Of a stretch of 64,000 nt of DNA, positions 1,378 through 49,903 are shown piece by piece; the first letter of the stretch is position 1; every line of letters begins with the position of its first letter. Under the pieces are notes generated by a model that made no database searches, had not been told where the DNA came from, and saw only the letters and a list, made by a program, of their open reading frames with translations. The position numbers were made by a program, and so were the translations under genes. Source of the DNA: Candidatus Woesearchaeota archaeon (GTDB lineage: Archaea; Nanobdellota; Nanobdellia; Pacearchaeales; GW2011-AR1); NCBI GenBank assembly GCA_964408235.1, contig CAYOYN010000002.1, positions 44,459 through 108,458 on the forward strand. The letters run 5' to 3'.

Positions 1378-1451
1378 GCACGGATGGCGAAGTGGTTAAC
1401 GCGCTCGGCTGCAGCCCGAGTATTCCAGGGGTTCGAATCCCTTTCCGTGCT
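1378..1451 (+). tRNA. tRNA-Cys (anticodon GCA)
   Basis: Acceptor GCACGGA/TCCGTGC, anticodon stem CTCGG/CCGAG with loop CTGCAGC, T arm AGGGG-TTCGAAT-CCCTT, discriminator U (typical for Cys). Confidence 0.8.
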
Positions 1452-1488
1452 TTTAATATAACGAAAGGTTTAAAGTAAGCCTTTTTTT

Positions 1489-2952
1489 ATGTTTATTATG
1501 GCTGAAAAGAAAGAAGCTCCTAAAATAACTGTTGAAGATTTGGCTATATTTTGTAAAAGACGTGGTTTTGTTTATCCTTCTTCTGAAATATATGGTGGAA
1601 TGAGTGGTATATGGGATTTTGGTCCTGTGGGTGTTGAATTAAAAAATAATATTAAGAAAGAATGGTGGAATTATTATGTCAAAAAGAGAGAAGATGTTGC
1701 TGGAATAGATGGATCCATTATAACTCCTAGAAAAATGTGGGAAGCTAGTGGACACTTATCTAGCTTTTATGATGTGGCTGTAAAATGCAAGAAATGTAAA
1801 AACGCTACTAAGATTGATGGAAATGAAGTTGGAAAAGTAAAATGTGATAAATGCGGTGGAGAATATGAAGTTTTAGGAAAATTCAATCAATTATTTCCAT
1901 TGCAAGTAGGAGCACTTAACCCTACTGAAGCTTACTTAAGAGGAGAGACTGCTCAAGTAATATTTGCTAACTTTAAACTAGTTGCCGAAAACGCAAGAAT
2001 GAGCTTACCTTTTGGAATTGCTCAAATAGGAAAAGTATTTCGTAATGAAATCTCTCCTCGTGAGTTTATTTTCAGAGATAGAGAATTTGAACAAATGGAA
2101 CTAGAATACTTCATTGCACCTAAACAAGATTGTCCTTACGAATTAATTGATCAAGAAATTCTAATTTATTCTCAAGAAATGCAGACCCATAAAAAAGAAG
2201 CTGTTAAAATGAAATTATCTAAAGCGCTAAAAGAAAAAGTAATCAAAAGGGATTGGCATGCTTATTGGATAGGTCAACAACTTAATTGGTTTAATTCATT
2301 AGGGCTTAATTTGGACAACTTTAGATTAAGACAGCATTTAATGGACGAAAAAAGCCATTATTCTACAGATACCTGGGATTTAGAATATAAATTCCCCATG
2401 GGTTGGAAAGAATTGCAGGGTTTTGCTGACAGATCTAATTATGATTTAACGCAACACCAAAAGTTTTCTGGAAAGAACCTTGAACTTACTGATCCTCAAC
2501 TAGGAAAAGTATTGCCTGAAGTAGTATGCGAACCTTCTTTGGGAGTAGAACGCGCTTTCATGATTATTATGCTTGATGCATACAACTACGATAAAGAAAG
2601 AGATAATGTCGTACTTAAATTGCACCCTAAACTTGCCCCTATTAAAGTCGGAGTTTTCCCTATTGTAAGGAAAGATGAAGAAGTTGTTAAAATGTCTCGT
2701 AAAATTTTTGAGGAACTAAACGAAGAATTTGAAACAACTTATGATGATAGCGGGACTGTTGGAAGAAGATACGCTAGAAATGATGAAATAGGTACGCCTT
2801 ATTGTGTTACAATTGACGGAGATTCATTAAAAGGTAAAGATGTTACAATTAGAGATCGCGATACTACAAAACAAGTAAGAGTTAAAGTAAAAGATTTAGC
2901 GGAAACAATTAGAAAATTGATCAATGGAAAAGTTTTGTTTTCTCAACTTTAA
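1489..2952 (+). CDS. glyS: Glycyl-tRNA synthetase, archaeal/eukaryotic alpha2 type
   Basis: 487 aa, class II core with typical archaeal GlyRS blocks (FRNEISPREFIFRDREFEQMELEYF; GVERAFM). The start may be the internal MAEKKE. Confidence 0.9.
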   Translation: MFIMAEKKEAPKITVEDLAIFCKRRGFVYPSSEIYGGMSGIWDFGPVGVELKNNIKKEWWNYYVKKREDVAGIDGSIITPRKMWEASGHLSSFYDVAVKCKKCKNATKIDGNEVGKVKCDKCGGEYEVLGKFNQLFPLQVGALNPTEAYLRGETAQVIFANFKLVAENARMSLPFGIAQIGKVFRNEISPREFIFRDREFEQMELEYFIAPKQDCPYELIDQEILIYSQEMQTHKKEAVKMKLSKALKEKVIKRDWHAYWIGQQLNWFNSLGLNLDNFRLRQHLMDEKSHYSTDTWDLEYKFPMGWKELQGFADRSNYDLTQHQKFSGKNLELTDPQLGKVLPEVVCEPSLGVERAFMIIMLDAYNYDKERDNVVLKLHPKLAPIKVGVFPIVRKDEEVVKMSRKIFEELNEEFETTYDDSGTVGRRYARNDEIGTPYCVTIDGDSLKGKDVTIRDRDTTKQVRVKVKDLAETIRKLINGKVLFSQL

Positions 2953-2995
2953 TATTTCTGCTTAGGTTTATAAATAAGATCTTCTAAATTATGTT

Positions 2996-3241
2996 ATGGG
3001 GATGATGGATTTATTGACTTGGCAGTATGGTTTCCTTTTCGGAGGTGCTATGTTTCTATTTGGTTTGATCGCTCTTGTATTTTGGATATGGTTGTTAATT
3101 GATTGTGCTAAACGTAAATTTAGGAATAATGTTGAAAAAGTAATATGGATAGTAGCCTTTGTTTTCTTAGGTCTTCTTGGGGCACTAGTTTATTTAATAG
3201 CTATCAGGATGTACAACCCTTCTGGTTTATTTAAGAGGTGA
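2996..3241 (+). CDS. PLDc_N-domain small membrane protein
   Basis: Two TM helices flank WLLIDCAKRKF...WIVAFVFLGLLGALVYL, as in the cardiolipin-synthase N-terminal domain. It is 44 bp downstream of glyS and 4 bp upstream of the next gene. Confidence 0.55.
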   Translation: MGMMDLLTWQYGFLFGGAMFLFGLIALVFWIWLLIDCAKRKFRNNVEKVIWIVAFVFLGLLGALVYLIAIRMYNPSGLFKR

Positions 3242-3244
3242 AAT

Positions 3245-4051
3245 ATGGTAAAAACACTTGGTTTCATATCTTTAAAGGGGGGTGTTGGGAAAACTACTAT
3301 GTCTGCTGCTGTTGCAACCCATCTTGCAAATTCATATCATAAAAAAGTTTTACTTATAGATGCTAATTTTTCTGCTCCTAATTTGGGGCTACACATGGAC
3401 ATTGTTTCCCCTCAAAAAACCATACATGATGTTTTGAATGGAGAACCTATTTCTTCAGCAATTCATTTACAATATGGGGTGGATGTTATTCCAGGTAATT
3501 TTTTGAATAATAAGGAGTTGAATCCTATGCTTCTTAAGGATAGGATTGGGCATATAAAAAAGGATTACGACTTTGTAATTTTAGATTCTTCTCCTTCTTT
3601 AAATGATGAAATGCTTGCAACTATAATTGCTTCAGACCATATTTTTGCAGTTTCTACTCCCGACTACCCTACTTTAAGTTGTACGATTCGTGCCGCTCAA
3701 TTAGCCAAGAGTAGACATAGGCCAATAGCAGGCATTATTGTAAATCAATCTCATGGGCATTATGATGTTAATGTCGATGAAATACAGGAGTCTACTGGGA
3801 TTCCAGTTGTTGCTAAGATAAAATACGATGATGTTCAACATATGGCTTTGCATGAAAGAATTCCTGCTCCTTTATTTGCTGGAAGAACTCCTTTTACAAC
3901 GGAAGTTGATAAGTTTTGTCGCGCAATATTAGGTTTGCCTGAGAAATCTTCTTGGTTTGCTAATCTTTTTTCTAGAGATGCTAAACTTGAACGCGTGAAC
4001 AGGGCTTTAATGTCAAAGACTTTTTATAAGGGCGTTTTCAAGCACGATTAA
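3245..4051 (+). CDS. MinD/ParA-family P-loop ATPase
   Basis: Deviant Walker A motif SLKGGVGKTT and Walker B motif VILDSSP. Confidence 0.75.
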   Translation: MVKTLGFISLKGGVGKTTMSAAVATHLANSYHKKVLLIDANFSAPNLGLHMDIVSPQKTIHDVLNGEPISSAIHLQYGVDVIPGNFLNNKELNPMLLKDRIGHIKKDYDFVILDSSPSLNDEMLATIIASDHIFAVSTPDYPTLSCTIRAAQLAKSRHRPIAGIIVNQSHGHYDVNVDEIQESTGIPVVAKIKYDDVQHMALHERIPAPLFAGRTPFTTEVDKFCRAILGLPEKSSWFANLFSRDAKLERVNRALMSKTFYKGVFKHD

Positions 4052-39763: not shown

Positions 39764-41128
39764 GTGGCTTTAAGCTTATATTTTATGAAAACTAAGAGAA
39801 CTGTAGTACATAGTGTACCTTATGAATTTCCTTTAGATAGGCATCTCTATGGGCAAACTTTTGTTATAGCAGACCATGTTAGGCACTCAGAAAATAATAC
39901 TGCTGTTTTTACTCAATCCCCTTATAATCTAAATGATAGTAATTTTGGTAAGCTTCAAAGAAGAGTTGCCAGAGATAAATTAGGTACTGAACTTGTTTTT
40001 TCACAAGATTTAACAGTACAACATCCAAAAAGAGCTTATGATGTTTCTAGAACCGCATTATTCCCATTTTTAGATGCGCGTGTTAATGAAGGCCCTGTTT
40101 CTTATGATGCCCATTATTTTAGAGATGGAAACTATCCTGAATTTGAACAAATAAAGCAAAGATTTGGAGATGACGTTGATTTTTTTGTTCATTTACACTG
40201 CTTGTCTACTCTTTTTTTGGGAGACCTTAATGTGTCTGAATTGACACATAGACAAAAAAAAGTTAGAGATAATTTGCTTAGAACAATGGATAAATATTCT
40301 CCTAAAATTATTGCGGTTTCAAATGCCGTAAGAGATTCTTTTTACCAACACGGCATATTACCTAATGGTAGTGTTGAGGTAGTTCATAACGGCGTAGAAA
40401 CAGATTTGTATCGTAAGGCAAGTGATAAAGAAAAAGAAGATTTTCGTAGAGAGCTAGGAATAAATGCTTCAAGACTTGTTGGTTATGTTGGACGTATTGA
40501 AGATATCAAAGGCGCAGATACGCTTTTAGGGATATTATCCAGGCATCCAGATTTAGGACAAGATGTGGGTTTTGTTATTGCTACAACTGATGGGAGAAAG
40601 GCTGGAGCTTTTCTTGATAAGGTTAGAAGAGACCTACCTGAATTAGTAGAAGATAATAGGATTAAATTTTGTGTTGATGCTTCTAAATTAACTGCTGGTT
40701 TTTATAAGAGGGATAGTGAGGTTTGTCGATATTTCGATGGACTAGCTCAAAATCTTGGATTTGGAAAATCTTTCGGAGATGTTTTAACTCGTCCTCTTCA
40801 TCCTCATTTGGATGTTTATGTTCAACCTTCGAATAGTGAGGCTCTTGGTTTGTCAGTGGTCGAAGCTGGAATGAGCGAAGTTCCAGTTGTTGCTTCAGAA
40901 ATAGGCGGAATTCCTGAAGTTGTTAATGTTAATGCTGGAACTTTAGTTCCAATAAAAGATCGTAAACGCGAGGATGTAGTTGATGATTTCACTTTCGCTA
41001 TAAAACATCATCTTTCTACTCAAACCAATCCTGTTGTTTCCGATAGCAACCGTACAAATCTCATAAGAAAGGGATTTGATGCTAGAACAATGGCTTCAAA
41101 GTTAGATGGCTTATACTCTAGAGATTAA
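39764..41128 (+). CDS. GT-B glycosyltransferase, family-4-like
   Basis: C-terminal EALGLSVVEAGMSEVPVVASEIGGIPEVV (E-x7-E type). Arg-rich and Lys-poor composition, and more CG-containing codons than its neighbours. Confidence 0.7.
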   Translation: MALSLYFMKTKRTVVHSVPYEFPLDRHLYGQTFVIADHVRHSENNTAVFTQSPYNLNDSNFGKLQRRVARDKLGTELVFSQDLTVQHPKRAYDVSRTALFPFLDARVNEGPVSYDAHYFRDGNYPEFEQIKQRFGDDVDFFVHLHCLSTLFLGDLNVSELTHRQKKVRDNLLRTMDKYSPKIIAVSNAVRDSFYQHGILPNGSVEVVHNGVETDLYRKASDKEKEDFRRELGINASRLVGYVGRIEDIKGADTLLGILSRHPDLGQDVGFVIATTDGRKAGAFLDKVRRDLPELVEDNRIKFCVDASKLTAGFYKRDSEVCRYFDGLAQNLGFGKSFGDVLTRPLHPHLDVYVQPSNSEALGLSVVEAGMSEVPVVASEIGGIPEVVNVNAGTLVPIKDRKREDVVDDFTFAIKHHLSTQTNPVVSDSNRTNLIRKGFDARTMASKLDGLYSRD

Positions 41129-45844: not shown

Positions 45845-46213
45845 ATGACTTATAGTTCGAATATAGAAAAAGAGACATTGAATAATTTGTTTTATCGTAA
45901 AGTTTTGTATACTTCCGATAATTTGCAACTTGTAGTTATGTCTCTTAAACCTAAAGAGGAAATTCCTCTTGAAACTCACAAGGATATTGACCAATTTATA
46001 AGAGTTGAATCTGGTGAAGCGGAGGTTTTTGTTGAAGGTAAGAAGTTTTTGTTGAAAGATGATGATATAATAATAATCCCTTCAGGTAAAGAACATAAGG
46101 TTTGTAATATTGGTAGCCGAGATTTAAAGCTATATTCTATTTATTCGCCTCCTGAGCACCCGAGAGGTACAATTCATAAGACTAAACAAGAATCTGATTT
46201 AGCGGAACATTGA
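45845..46213 (+). CDS. Cupin-domain protein
   Basis: Cupin_2 layout: H..D...E ... IIIIPSGKEHKVCN. Confidence 0.6.
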   Translation: MTYSSNIEKETLNNLFYRKVLYTSDNLQLVVMSLKPKEEIPLETHKDIDQFIRVESGEAEVFVEGKKFLLKDDDIIIIPSGKEHKVCNIGSRDLKLYSIYSPPEHPRGTIHKTKQESDLAEH

Positions 46214-46237: not shown

Positions 46238-46522
46238 TTGGCCTTAGATTATATGAATATCGTGAAACAATCTAAAGCATTGACTCAGGTAAAGAAGGGA
46301 GATTTTATTACGGTTAATGGCAAGAAACTGGAAGTTGATGCACACTATGTTTTTGAAGATTATAAAACTACAAAAGAAATGCTGATTGAATTATTTGATC
46401 CTAAAACCGATAAGGATTATCAAATAAGATATTTTGATGATCAGGTTAAGGAAACTCTAAAGTTCTATGAGCTTAAAGAGATAGTTTATGACGAAGTAGA
46501 TATTGAAAAGATTGAGTGGTAG
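46238..46522 (+). CDS. Hypothetical protein
   Basis: 94 aa; no recognised motif. Confidence 0.3.
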   Translation: MALDYMNIVKQSKALTQVKKGDFITVNGKKLEVDAHYVFEDYKTTKEMLIELFDPKTDKDYQIRYFDDQVKETLKFYELKEIVYDEVDIEKIEW

Positions 46523-46556: not shown

Positions 46557-47861
46557 ATGGGTTTAGTTGAAGATAAGGTCAAAACATATTTGGCTGCAAT
46601 AAAAAAATACAATAAAATCGTTAATGCTTTTTTAGAGGTTAGAGATGAAAAGGAATTAATTGAGGAAGCAAGAAAACTTGATTCTAAGTCTAAAAAAGGT
46701 AAACTTTACGGATATGTAATAGGTGTTAAAAGTAATATTTGTGTTAAGGGTTTACATGCTTCTTGTGCTTCTAAAACTTTGGAAGACTATGAAGCTCCTT
46801 ATGATGCAACTGTTGTTTCTAAAATTAAGTCTGAAGATGGTTTGATAATCGGAATGCTTAATTGCGATGAATTTGCATGTGGTTGGACTGGTGAAACTAG
46901 TGCTTTTGGAAAGACGGATAATCCTACAGTTCCTGGACATATTCCCGGAGGTTCAAGTAGTGGTAGCGCTGCAGCAGTTGCTGCAGGATTTTGCGATGTA
47001 GCTTTGGGAAGTGATACTGGAGGGTCAATTAGAGTTCCTGCATCATTTTGTGGAGTGGTTGGAATAAAACCTTCTTATGGATGTGTTTCTCGTTATGGTT
47101 TAATTGATTTGTCTATGTCTTTAGATCAAATTGGTCCTATTGCAAGAAATGTTGAAGGTGCTTCAATATTATTAGATGTAATAAAAGGAATTGATGAAAA
47201 AGATACTACTACTTTTGATTCTAAGCCTATTAAGAATGAGAATGTTGAAAAAATGAAATATGGTTTAGTAAGTGTTCCACAAGTAGATGTTAGAATTATG
47301 GATATGGTTGCGTCTGTATTTGCTGGAGCTAATGAAAAATTAAAATGGTCTGAAAAAAAAGTTACTCTAAAAAATATTGACTTAGCTATTCAAACTTATC
47401 ATCCTCTTGTTTGGACGGAGTTTTTTTCTGCAACTCGTAGAATGGATGGCAGAAGATTTGGAAAGAAAATTGAAGATAGTGCTGGAGATGAAGTTTTACG
47501 TAGGCTTTCAGGCGGAAGTGAAATATCTAAGGCAGAATCTGAGGGGCAATATTATCACAAGGCTCTTGCTGTTAAAGAACTAATCAAAAAAGAATTTGAA
47601 AGAGTTTTAGATGAGGTAGATTTTATCGTTATGCCTACGACTCCATTTTTGCCTTGGAAATTTGGTACAAAGGTTGACCTTGAAAAATTATATGCTGTTG
47701 ATGCTCTTACCATCCCAGGTAATTTGGCTGAAATATGTGCTATATCCATTCCAATCGGAAAAATTGAAGAAAAACCAGTTGGTATGCAGATAGTTTGTGC
47801 TAAAGGGCATGAGTCTAGAATGATTAGTATTGCGAAAGAGATTGAAAAGATAGTTGCATAA
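46557..47861 (+). CDS. gatA: Amidase-signature enzyme, Asp/Glu-tRNA amidotransferase subunit A
   Basis: GGSSSGSAAAVAAG amidase signature with the Ser-cisSer-Lys spacing. Confidence 0.8.
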   Translation: MGLVEDKVKTYLAAIKKYNKIVNAFLEVRDEKELIEEARKLDSKSKKGKLYGYVIGVKSNICVKGLHASCASKTLEDYEAPYDATVVSKIKSEDGLIIGMLNCDEFACGWTGETSAFGKTDNPTVPGHIPGGSSSGSAAAVAAGFCDVALGSDTGGSIRVPASFCGVVGIKPSYGCVSRYGLIDLSMSLDQIGPIARNVEGASILLDVIKGIDEKDTTTFDSKPIKNENVEKMKYGLVSVPQVDVRIMDMVASVFAGANEKLKWSEKKVTLKNIDLAIQTYHPLVWTEFFSATRRMDGRRFGKKIEDSAGDEVLRRLSGGSEISKAESEGQYYHKALAVKELIKKEFERVLDEVDFIVMPTTPFLPWKFGTKVDLEKLYAVDALTIPGNLAEICAISIPIGKIEEKPVGMQIVCAKGHESRMISIAKEIEKIVA

Positions 47862-47891
47862 CATTATAAAATCGAATTATTCTAGATTATT

Positions 47892-48725
47892 ATGAAAATT
47901 CAGTTTAATCCAAAAACTTTTTTTCTGTTTTCTCTCTTTCTTTTGATAGGAGTCACTTTTATTATTTACCCATTTACTGATTCTAGTAAAAGTATAAGAG
48001 ATTCATACGGTAATTTATTATTCAATCCTACTGAACCATCATTGGGTTCTATGGGGGGGCACTTGAATGCTCCTGGCAGACCTCATGATACAGAAGATAT
48101 TCCAGAGGGATGGATTCATAATGACTTTAAGGGAAATGTTTATGATACCCTAATAGTTCAAGGAAATAGGTTACATAATAACTTTCCTGGAAACCCCTAT
48201 CACACTTTAAGATATCCTCCCGGATACGAACATGTAAACAAACAAACAAGCCCTGATTATACTTATAGGGTAAGCCCGGAACCTGGGAGACATCAAGAAA
48301 AACCCCGACAATTACATAATAACTTTCCTGGAAGACCTGGAGATACTTTAATGTACGACTCTGGAAAAAAACATTATGACTTTCCTGGAAGACCTGGAGA
48401 TACTACCAGACATGAGCCAGATTATGAACATAGTAATTTCCCAGGAAATCCTTATGATACGGACTCAAACCCTCCGGGATGGAAACACAATGATCACGCT
48501 GGCCCGAGCCAAACTTCATCGTATCCTCCTACTTACGAACACAATAGTTTTCCTGGAAGACCTCAGGATACTAGGATGTTTCCTCCAGAATGGAAACATA
48601 ATGATAGACAGGGAAATCAATATGATACTCAGAGATTTCCTCCAGGAAGTAAACATAATAATAGTCCCGGCCCAAGTCAGACTTCTATGAATTGGCAATC
48701 ATCTCAAAACCCGCCTGGAGCTTGA
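47892..48725 (+). CDS. Secreted or membrane-anchored repeat protein with ~7 degenerate FPG(R/N)P-x-DT...PP-x-KHN repeats
   Basis: N-terminal signal/anchor helix, then repeats such as HNNFPGNPYHTLRYPPGYEHVN, HNNFPGRPGDTLMYDSGKKHYD, FPGRPGDTTRHEPDYEHSN, FPGNPYDTDSNPPGWKHNDH, NSFPGRPQDTRMFPPEWKHNDR. Rich in His, Asn, Pro, Gly, Tyr and Asp. Confidence 0.5.
   Translation: MKIQFNPKTFFLFSLFLLIGVTFIIYPFTDSSKSIRDSYGNLLFNPTEPSLGSMGGHLNAPGRPHDTEDIPEGWIHNDFKGNVYDTLIVQGNRLHNNFPGNPYHTLRYPPGYEHVNKQTSPDYTYRVSPEPGRHQEKPRQLHNNFPGRPGDTLMYDSGKKHYDFPGRPGDTTRHEPDYEHSNFPGNPYDTDSNPPGWKHNDHAGPSQTSSYPPTYEHNSFPGRPQDTRMFPPEWKHNDRQGNQYDTQRFPPGSKHNNSPGPSQTSMNWQSSQNPPGA
48170..48700. repeat. Tandem degenerate ~66-bp DNA repeats underlying the protein repeats
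   Basis: For example, ACTTTCCTGGAAGACCTGGAGATACT occurs twice (about 48318 and 48381). The repeats generate spurious ORFs in other frames at 48376-48690 and 48516-48698. Confidence 0.7.
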
Positions 48726-48762
48726 TTTTATATATCTATATAAATAAGATTTATTTTTATTA

Positions 48763-49875
48763 ATGATGAATAAAGACTTTTTTACCTGGGATAAATTAAT
48801 CATTATTTTATTTTTTGGTTTATTGGCTATGGTTATTATCGGCTTAATTAGTGGTAATAAAATTGAGAATCTTAAAATTGATGATAAATCATTTTTTACG
48901 CAAGGCGAATTAATGGAAGATCTTGCTAATACTTCTGTTAATATGAGTGATGCACTAGATGTTTTTAGATATGTTTTTCACAGGATGGAAGATGAAGTTA
49001 CAATATATCAATCTGAAAACAATCTTTACTTGAGATTTGCCGCCCATGGGAGAATATTTGGGGGAATTATTACTCTTGCTATATTGACGCGAGATGAGGG
49101 AGTTATTAGTCTTAGTTACATTGAAAGAAAAGAGAATCCTAATGAAGCTCCTGTTAGAGATTTTATTGGAGGGGGGAATTCATTTAATGCTACCCATGGA
49201 GTTATTGTTGAGAAACTGAATGATTGGAAATATCAAGCAACTTTTGAAAATAAAACTGTGATCTTTAATTTGTACAATCCTGGTATGAGTCCTCCAAAAA
49301 AAGCTAAATTATTGAAGGCTGAAGAATATGTTGGACCGGTTTTTGATGAATCTGGTATTGAAATGTATCTTGTTTTCAATAAAAATGTAAATAGATTATA
49401 TTTAATATTAAATGAGGATAGATATGTTAGAGAGCAATTTTTAGATATTGGAGAAGGTGTTTTAATCGGACACAGGACATCTTTTGCATTCTACAATGAT
49501 TCTGTAAACAATAGGAAAATATTGATTGGGGTTAGAGGAGAAAATACTATTCAAAACAATTGGTATGACGGGCCGCATGATCAGATGCCTGATAATTATG
49601 TGCATTACGGATATATTCCTAAATATTTAGAGTATCTGGAAGCAGCTTACCCGGAACTAAAAGGTAGAATGGACAAATATGGCCACTTTTTAGAGAAGGA
49701 TACTGGAAGAGTTGCTGTAGCGCCATATTATGTTTATTTTTATGAACAAGATTTATTGGATATTGTTTCTGCTTGTAAGAAAATGAAAGATCAATCCGAA
49801 ATGTATGATTGCATGACTCTGCAAATATATGACATTCCAGAAGAAAAACAATATTTAATGCATTATTACGAATAG
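48763..49875 (+). CDS. Hypothetical membrane-anchored protein
   Basis: 370 aa, N-terminal TM helix, Tyr-rich C-terminal region; no recognised family. Confidence 0.4.
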   Translation: MMNKDFFTWDKLIIILFFGLLAMVIIGLISGNKIENLKIDDKSFFTQGELMEDLANTSVNMSDALDVFRYVFHRMEDEVTIYQSENNLYLRFAAHGRIFGGIITLAILTRDEGVISLSYIERKENPNEAPVRDFIGGGNSFNATHGVIVEKLNDWKYQATFENKTVIFNLYNPGMSPPKKAKLLKAEEYVGPVFDESGIEMYLVFNKNVNRLYLILNEDRYVREQFLDIGEGVLIGHRTSFAFYNDSVNNRKILIGVRGENTIQNNWYDGPHDQMPDNYVHYGYIPKYLEYLEAAYPELKGRMDKYGHFLEKDTGRVAVAPYYVYFYEQDLLDIVSACKKMKDQSEMYDCMTLQIYDIPEEKQYLMHYYE

Positions 49876-49903
49876 TTATAAAATAAGAGTTGTTTTCATT
49901 TTT

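Follow-up and report, generated by a model that had tools for sequence, protein, structure and literature searches.

What does an exported archaeal protein that is built almost entirely of short histidine-containing repeats do outside the cell, and is it the whole of the system to which it belongs? The question is raised by the stretch of DNA analysed here (hereafter the window), which comprises 64,000 nucleotides from a DPANN archaeon of the Woese-/Pacearchaeota type. On its plus strand, at 47892-48725, lies an ATG-initiated open reading frame (ORF) of 277 aa plus stop, the repeat gene (REP), which the original prediction, made from the letters alone, had singled out. That prediction overlooked a conserved gene on the same strand, 37 nt downstream of REP, the partner gene (48763-49875, an ORF of 370 aa), and this partner changes what the object is. 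Comparisons of sequence and gene order suggest that the two genes form an extracytoplasmic module, and we give an even chance to the reading that the repeat array is a client that the partner binds or chemically acts on.

Several comparisons argue firmly that 47892-48725 encodes a real protein. A look-up that matches exact sequences only returned the identical 277-aa product on five public contigs, including NCBI GCA_053576675.1, and the three of these contigs that were read were 99-100% identical to the window at the nucleotide level. Samples SRR12487035 and DRR685535 contain the gene. Both of the same-species contigs that differed from the window carried the same three substitutions inside REP, all at third codon positions and none of them non-synonymous; the single-nucleotide polymorphism (SNP) at 48608 leaves the REP residue unchanged and falls at codon position 2 of an alternative-frame ORF (48376-48690, plus strand, 104 aa). 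This ORF and a second one (48516-48698, minus strand, 60 aa) are by-products of the repeats, and were correctly anticipated as spurious ORFs in two other frames. An exhaustive phmmer search of 1.84 billion cluster representatives identified 11 homologues (E 2e-27 to 1.5e-6), and these correspond to the REP frame only. Since in all 11 a signal-like N-terminal segment precedes the same repeat, kept in register, 47892-48725 was assigned as the coding frame, in agreement with the earlier description of an exported or anchored repeat protein. The N-terminal anchor or signal segment (aa ~9-28), together with a short linker (aa 29-56), occupies 47892-48059 on the plus strand. The helix that had been proposed here was recovered both as the best 19-residue Kyte-Doolittle window (aa 10-28, score 2.36) and in the AlphaFold2 (AF2) model, which places a helix at aa 7-43 with predicted local distance difference test (pLDDT) values of 71-94 over the first 30 residues. 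The anchor and linker, plus the first three to four repeat units, are the best-conserved region of REP among its orthologues.

The rest of the protein consists of His/Asn/Pro/Gly/Tyr-rich repeats that bear the motif as it had been written, but the period and copy number required revision. In place of about seven units of 22 aa (66 bp), the unit table and autocorrelation gave 11 units with a period of 19 aa (57 nt) at 48060-48722 on the plus strand; the motif as written counts 'HN' at both ends. Split at the recurring His, the units start at aa 57, 76, 95, 114, 142, 161, 180, 199, 217, 236 and 255 (DNA positions 48060, 48117, 48174, 48231, 48315, 48372, 48429, 48486, 48540, 48597 and 48654). 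Eight units are exactly 19 aa long, the unit at aa 114 has 28 residues, that at aa 199 has 18, and the array closes with a partial unit and a tail. The consensus of 69 archaeal units is H-N-N-F-P-G-R-P-x-D-T-x-R-Y-P-P-G-W-K/E; a hidden Markov model (HMM) of the unit found 11 domains in REP, and 10 copies of H-x2-4-G-x0-4-[ST] are present. The composition of aa 57-277 is dominated by Pro (14.9%), Asn (9.5%), Gly (9.0%), His (7.2%) and Asp (7.2%). Self-identity of the protein was highest (0.267) at a lag of 19 residues and echoed at 37/38 and 56, and in 2000 shuffles the best identity at any lag averaged 0.116 and reached a maximum of 0.157. The 19-aa periodicity is beyond chance at the protein level.

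At the DNA level, direct repeats were spaced by 57, 114 and 111 nt, and identity at lag 57 was 0.46. Tandem Repeats Finder reported nothing for 47500-49200, even at a score of 30, because the DNA repeats are too diverged. The most alike adjacent units, and the only pair of that kind, lie at 48307-48404 on the plus strand (88% identity over 41 nt). Within this pair are the two copies, and no others, of the 26-mer ACTTTCCTGGAAGACCTGGAGATACT, at 48322 and 48379 (57 nt apart), which had been quoted as occurring twice. Judged by its identity, the pair is probably the most recent unit duplication. Variation of copy number by slippage, also suggested earlier, is not supported within the species: in a look-up of exact matches five contigs carried the identical 277-aa protein, and the DNA repeats are too diverged for slippage; between related species copy number does vary, from 5 to 13 units.

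Alignments of double and triple units from the 12 proteins showed which residues are kept. The His at position 1 is invariant and the Gly at position 6 is ~90% conserved, followed by Ser/Thr at 10/11, a hydrophobic or aromatic residue and then Pro-Pro at 14-16, and an aromatic residue at 18. Class 1 units, to which the window protein belongs, are 19 aa long ('HNxFPGxPxDTxxYPPxWK') and class 2 units are 18 aa long ('HNxxxGPxKSxMFPPxYK'). Three homologues (P0001, P0006 and P0008) have 18-aa units followed by a C-terminal Por_Secre_tail sorting domain (PF18962; E 2e-10 to 4e-9), and therefore were designated Bacteroidota-type cargo of the type IX secretion system (T9SS). The C-terminus of P0011 is very similar to theirs, so that four of the 11 homologues look like T9SS cargo. 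Based on these homologues, we conclude that the repeat works outside the cell. The window REP differs from this cargo in being archaeal and in having an N-terminal anchor instead of the PF18962 sorting domain, which is not found in it.

The motif had been described as unrecognised, and our searches bear this out. No family was matched by REP in Pfam (E<=1) or NCBIfam (E<=10), or by the repeats of 10 of the homologues; sequence and profile searches of the PDB gave nothing for REP or the partner, and literature searches with motif strings of the repeat returned nothing relevant. A word-indexed homology search, with the whole of REP and then with a three-unit profile, produced no match, a single-sequence search of genome, viral and metagenome collections found no relatives, and the pattern PPGWKH[NG][DP] gave chance matches only. 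Regular expressions detected no HxxHxH, H-x-H or Cys in the 277-aa protein and no collagen-like run of at least four G-X-Y triplets. Membership of the window REP among collagen-like, polyhistidine-triad (Pht)-like or T9SS proteins was rejected, as the defining features are all missing.

Modelling gave a partial picture of the array. The full-length AF2 model, for which the 11 homologues were used, had a mean pLDDT of 54 and was low over aa 31-153. A model of aa 142-277 from a register-aligned alignment reached a pLDDT of 64.6 and a predicted template modelling score (pTM) of 0.53, with 70-80 in the middle units, and predicts at moderate confidence a regular non-helical repeat that is neither a clear beta-solenoid nor clear disorder. 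Two short beta-bridges are predicted per unit, at unit positions 19/1 and 13/14, with ladder-like regularity. Fold searches with both array models returned nothing significant.

The partner has a single N-terminal transmembrane helix (aa 12-30, Kyte-Doolittle score 3.05) and an ectodomain of ~330 aa, and its calculated isoelectric point is 5.0; bacterial versions have signal or lipoprotein-like N-termini. Family motifs include ENYYYF, FDESG and NNWYDGPxDQxPxNY, and the window partner contains NNWYDGPHDQMPDNY. A profile of four partners matched 1136 clusters at E<=1e-3, all of them 'hypothetical' and none with a Pfam domain, from Acidobacteria, Kapabacteria, Aquificota, Woesearchaeota and many metagenome bins. 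Across 47 members that are 36-87% identical to the window partner, 20 positions are invariant: M2, E85, N86, Y89, E187, D195, G198, G236, R238, D246, R251, N265, D269, G270, P271, D273, N278, R316, Y322 and Y325. Leaving out the start Met, the invariant set consists of acidic and amide side chains, Arg, Tyr and Gly/Pro, and such conservation resembles that of an active or ligand-binding site more than that of a scaffold.

The gene order in the window is gatA-REP-partner-MBL, the last being a metallo-beta-lactamase (MBL)-fold gene. In most archaeal relatives (GatA 62-89% identical) gatA is followed directly by the MBL-fold gene, and therefore REP and the partner were identified as an insertion. 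No direct repeats and no integrase were seen at the borders of the two genes. A mobile-element or defence origin was also considered and rejected; searches with PADLOC and PHROGs and of viral contigs and plasmid and phage collections produced no match for REP or the partner. P0007, a 186-aa protein of ~6 units encoded directly after a GatA 89% identical to that of the window, is by its position a syntenic orthologue of REP, at an identity of only 31-37%. At another locus (L010; GatA 94% identical) the order is swapped to gatA-partner-REP-MBL, with a partner 92% identical to that of the window and a REP of 340 aa that is 56% identical over its N-terminal part. In L137-139 a partner 82% identical is followed by a 273-aa REP orthologue (51% overall) between YdjM and RadA, a site unrelated to the gatA-MBL site. 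In loci L054 and L055, one partner gene stands between two REP genes. These comparisons of gene order indicate that REP and the partner stay together through inversion, relocation and duplication. The relatives also reveal an asymmetry of rates, with identities of 82-92% for the partner, 89-94% for GatA and 31-56% for REP, whose unit number ranges from 5 to 13.

Two side observations concern these loci. The flanking genes of L054 (2843-3877 and 5124-5933) and L055 (321-1217 and 2332-3129) are diverged repeat paralogues, one of them with 13 near-perfect 'NFPGRPHDTE' units, and the single partners between them are the closest metagenomic homologues of the window partner (64-69% identical). Just upstream of the homologue P0003 is a 35-aa remnant of a partner C-terminus (L005 7765-7869, L006 3688-3792) that adjoins an oppositely oriented HTH_38 (IS30-like) gene, which suggests that the partner of P0003 was disrupted by an insertion.

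The pairing extends to bacteria. Two homologues of REP, P0009 (843 aa, at least 20 units) and P0005 (355 aa), are on unrelated bacterial contigs, and 39-48 nt downstream of each is an unannotated gene of 350-369 aa. The products of these genes are 44% and 41% identical to the window partner (E 8e-97 and 3e-88, respectively) and 50% identical to each other. A blind scan of metagenomes with the partner profile then yielded 459 confirmed loci, of which 79 were kept. The REP unit HMM matched flanking ORFs at E<=1e-12 in five partner loci, which were among those with the closest partners (46-70% identical to that of the window). More distant partners are preceded by repeat proteins with periods of 8, 9, 13, 16, 17, 22, 24, 27, 28 and 34 aa, and every unit of these has a His with Gly and Ser/Thr nearby; examples are 'RSWHRxG', GSHNKKRSHART, KKTQSHLKTGSPH, 'FPQSxHLPxGSNPxH', 'HIRTGDxxSKIYP' and KHASEEGPDKSKY. 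Of the 70 loci whose upstream flank measured 400 nt or more, 20 had, directly upstream of the partner, a same-strand ORF with strong periodicity (z>8, repeat identity >=0.2); of the control ORFs in the same contigs, only 1.6% reached z>8. The blind loci were then combined with seven pairs already found earlier. At least three copies of H-x3-4-G-x3-4-[ST] were present at 19 of 73 partner loci versus 2 of 1265 control ORFs, and at least five copies of H-x2-4-G-x0-4-[ST] were present in an adjacent same-strand ORF at 25 of 82 evaluable loci versus 2/1265 controls. Where the partner is at least 39% identical to that of the window, the latter test was positive at 15 of 28 loci. The window pair itself has the sequence features that we propose as defining the module: an export anchor, at least five tandem His-Gly-Ser/Thr units and an adjacent same-strand partner.

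The bacterial counterparts of the two proteins have signal peptides, lipoprotein boxes, T9SS C-terminal domains or PG_binding_1 domains. Some bacterial arrays are C-terminal tails on conserved domains of ~700 aa, three of which have PG_binding_1, and therefore these array proteins were placed in the cell envelope. Proteins of ~950-1270 aa that end in long His-Ser arrays of short units are encoded directly upstream of the partner in L080, L083, L087, L089, L114, L124 and L131, with PG_binding_1 in L083, L087 and L114. Those of L080, L083, L089 and L124 have in common an unannotated N-terminal domain with the motifs ERGGxRNLG, GYGY and GDxLCS. Two further loci, L134 (5913-8236) and L135 (7001-9417), have two tandem partner paralogues; upstream are a gene for an extracytoplasmic function (ECF)-type sigma factor and one for a lipoprotein of ~220-240 aa with degenerate H-x3-G-x3-S-x-Y units, and downstream is an S8 peptidase of 1460-1510 aa with FG-GAP repeats.

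In the mechanism that we consider most likely, REP would be anchored in the membrane by its N-terminus and would hold its eleven 19-residue units outside the archaeal cell, each presenting an invariant His, a Gly 4-5 residues on, a Thr/Ser and an aromatic-Pro-Pro-x-Trp/Tyr turn. REP would be the variable half of a two-gene extracytoplasmic module and the outward-facing, anchored 370-aa partner its constant half. The partner would recognise each H...G...S/T unit and bind, chemically modify or process it, and the array would be a multivalent client, free to drift in copy number and sequence as long as the short motif is kept. The interaction of partner and array, its chemistry and any role of a metal ion are inferred. 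Given the pattern of conservation in the partner, we consider it somewhat more likely that it acts as an enzyme (by modification, cleavage or cross-linking) than that it only binds. We put forward only tentatively, as a doubtful proposition, the further step that a conserved enzyme of ~330 aa, found in Archaea and Bacteria, performs a post-translational reaction of a new kind on each H-x-G-x-S/T unit in hypervariable tandem-repeat envelope proteins; candidate reactions would be modification, cross-linking or cleavage at His or Ser/Thr.

A number of results weigh against this proposal. The best-scoring homologue, the T9SS cargo protein P0001, has no partner within 6 kb, and therefore the pairing is frequent and not obligate. 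About two thirds of the partner loci have no such repeat neighbour within the flank that was examined. The array models are only moderately confident (pLDDT 54 for the full length and 65 for aa 142-277), and no profile match for the partner came from Pfam, NCBIfam or the PDB, even when 47 diverse members were used. No His or Cys is invariant among those members, which argues against a typical metalloenzyme or thiol enzyme, and an extracellular enzyme would be without ATP.

Of the other explanations, the one that survives best is that REP is a stand-alone metal-binding array, in which His with Asp/Asn chelates Zn, Ni, Cu or Co at the cell surface and the protein serves as a metal sponge or hand-off protein with the partner as, at most, a receiver. 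Several features fit this idea: the single invariant His at fixed spacing in each unit, the Asp found at position 10 of 64% of archaeal units, the additional His of several units, and the 'RPHDTE' of close relatives, which provides two His per unit; the regular AF2 repeat could also bring matching residues of neighbouring units into line. As a rule, however, a unit conserves just one His; HxxHxH, H-x-H and Cys are absent, and the bacterial versions keep Ser/Gly near the His and not a second ligand. In addition, no metal transporter or Zur/Fur-type gene recurs in the examined neighbourhoods, and the partner, as noted, has no invariant His or Cys. On this balance we judge a metal array unlikely. 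Streptococcal Pht proteins co-encoded with AdcAII provide a precedent for it, and from what is generally known of them they also consist of a surface protein with several short His motifs beside a conserved extracytoplasmic partner, the repeat protein being the more variable. They differ in that the HxxHxH triads of Pht lie in folded domains, whereas REP has none and usually one conserved His per 19-aa unit, and in that the window partner is no solute-binding protein by any profile; there is no sequence similarity. Secreted His-based zinc handling has a second precedent in ZepA, a globular protein of 27 kDa and two domains that has a PEP-CTERM signal and a single H-X2-9-H-F/Y-H site (PMC10957091). 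Like REP, ZepA is secreted, has conserved His proposed to be functional and is patchily distributed across distant phyla (PMC10957091), but it has no tandem array, no partner of this family and no similarity to REP. It proved to be unrelated.

The array could instead be a passive spacer or stalk, a proline-rich extended linker with no specific ligand that sets a distance or fills the pseudo-periplasmic space, in which case the adjacency of the genes would reflect envelope co-expression only. Its 15% Pro and 9% Gly, the low pLDDT over aa 31-153 and the fast turnover of sequence and copy number are what such a linker would show. A spacer, on the other hand, needs no invariant His, Gly and Thr in set places, and these are kept across domains of life and across unit lengths of 8-34 aa. 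Furthermore, the window REP has nothing distal to the array to be held out, and the pair persists through rearrangement and relocation. A spacer therefore seems improbable.

We consider it decidedly improbable that the array is a multi-copy precursor from which the partner or another protease frees many copies of a short His-containing peptide by cleavage at every unit. Some bacterial arrays are near-perfect concatemers of 8-13 aa (e.g., KKTQSHLKTGSPH in at least 20 copies, and 'RSWH' units), two loci have an S8 peptidase gene downstream, and a partner conserved as an enzyme would be, facing a hypervariable 'substrate', mirrors the systems for ribosomally synthesized and post-translationally modified peptides (RiPPs). 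Many bacterial arrays, however, tail conserved domains of ~700 aa with peptidoglycan-binding modules, in the archaeal proteins the N-terminal third shows the conservation of a functional scaffold, the units of the window protein are too dissimilar for one product, and the partner has no recognisable protease motif. The closest parallels, taken from general knowledge, are the Kex2-processed fungal RiPPs and the substrates of BURP-domain cyclases, which likewise combine many tandem short motifs with one conserved processing protein. They differ from the present module in that many arrays here are tails of large envelope proteins and the partner matches no known RiPP enzyme family.

Still less probable, in our estimation, is a self-assembling surface fibre or matrix in which stacked units polymerise and the partner anchors or nucleates them, as in curli CsgA/CsgB. 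The ladder-like pair of beta-bridges at fixed positions of each unit and the combination of one variable and one conserved member would be in keeping with a fibre, but the predicted strands are only two residues long, the high Pro content disfavours cross-beta structure, the Gln/Asn (Q/N) ladder motifs of known functional amyloids are absent and the models, of moderate confidence, matched no solenoid or amyloid fold. As general background, curli and the serine-rich repeat glycoproteins with their Gtf/aSec accessory genes resemble the module in joining a fast-evolving exported repeat protein to a conserved co-encoded companion by which it is acted on. Their Q/N ladders or SxSx runs differ from the His-Gly-Ser/Thr units, there is no sequence or profile similarity, and the REP module consists of only two genes, both of whose products are outside the membrane. 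Finally, there is next to no likelihood of a chance ORF that repetitive DNA has kept free of stops, the real product being encoded in a different frame or not at all: repeats do open ORFs in other frames and the word-indexed search was blank, but this explanation is effectively excluded by three of three SNPs being synonymous in the REP frame, by in-frame homologues that bear signal peptides and T9SS sorting domains and come from unrelated organisms, by the syntenic orthologues and by a TATA-like box at the expected distance.

From these comparisons REP and its partner are apparently an undescribed module, 'new' in the sense of unannotated and unmatched, the mechanism being not proven. If the pairing is functional, it would represent a new two-component envelope system that spans genome-reduced DPANN archaea, Bacteroidota-like organisms, Acidobacteria, Aquificota, and marine, soil and groundwater bacteria. 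Surface proteins of DPANN archaea are thought to mediate host contact, and the module bears on this poorly understood cell surface. Two small secreted proteins and a minimal motif also offer a cheap experimental handle on microbial 'dark matter'. There is a lesson for method as well, in that REP is nearly invisible to homology search (11 in 1.84 billion) and was findable via its conserved neighbour.

Upstream of REP is a candidate archaeal TATA element, TTATAAAA (47864-47871, plus strand), read from the sequence 21 nt before the ATG. A comparable candidate, TATATAAA (48737-48744, plus strand), is 19 nt before the ATG of the partner, and boxes like TTATAAAA are at a similar distance before the MBL gene of the window and before the MBL genes of L011, L012 and L014. 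In the window the boxes thus stand ~19-29 nt upstream of consecutive start codons (47864-47871, 48737-48744 and ~49876-49885). This arrangement suggests a separate archaeal TATA promoter for each gene and mRNAs that are leaderless or nearly so, with the caveat that such boxes are weak support in an AT-rich genome (33% GC). The GC content of REP (0.39) is raised versus that of the window (0.33) and the partner (0.32), probably from the Pro/Gly codon load and not from foreign origin.

The wider neighbourhood in the window includes GatD, a GatE-like gene, GatA, archaeal-type prolyl- and aspartyl-tRNA synthetases (ProRS and AspRS), deoxyhypusine synthase and FtsZ. In a GTDB scan with GatA, the window fell among metagenome-assembled genomes labelled Woesearchaeota, Pacearchaeota or Nanoarchaeota, all of them DPANN archaea. 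On the NCBI contig L001, which is of the same species and agrees with the window in its 3' flank up to 56000, eIF-1A and MCM are among the genes that follow FtsZ. There is also a strain-level gene swap: in the window, GatD and the GatE-like gene are separated by a GT4 glycosyltransferase (39764-41128), and L001, whose sequence is 98-99% identical, has instead (1446-3560) a minus-strand 333-aa gene without a Pfam match and a Fic-domain gene. A cupin-domain gene (45845-46213) is present in the window, L002 and L011, and is missing at that place in L001, a further small polymorphism of presence and absence. At 46238-46522 is a 94-aa ORF with a TTG start and two marginal Pfam matches only (E about 0.1). 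The closer archaeal relatives keep this ORF at 80-93% identity (L022 at 60%), at a varying distance upstream of gatA, and on that conservation it is likely to be a real small gene.

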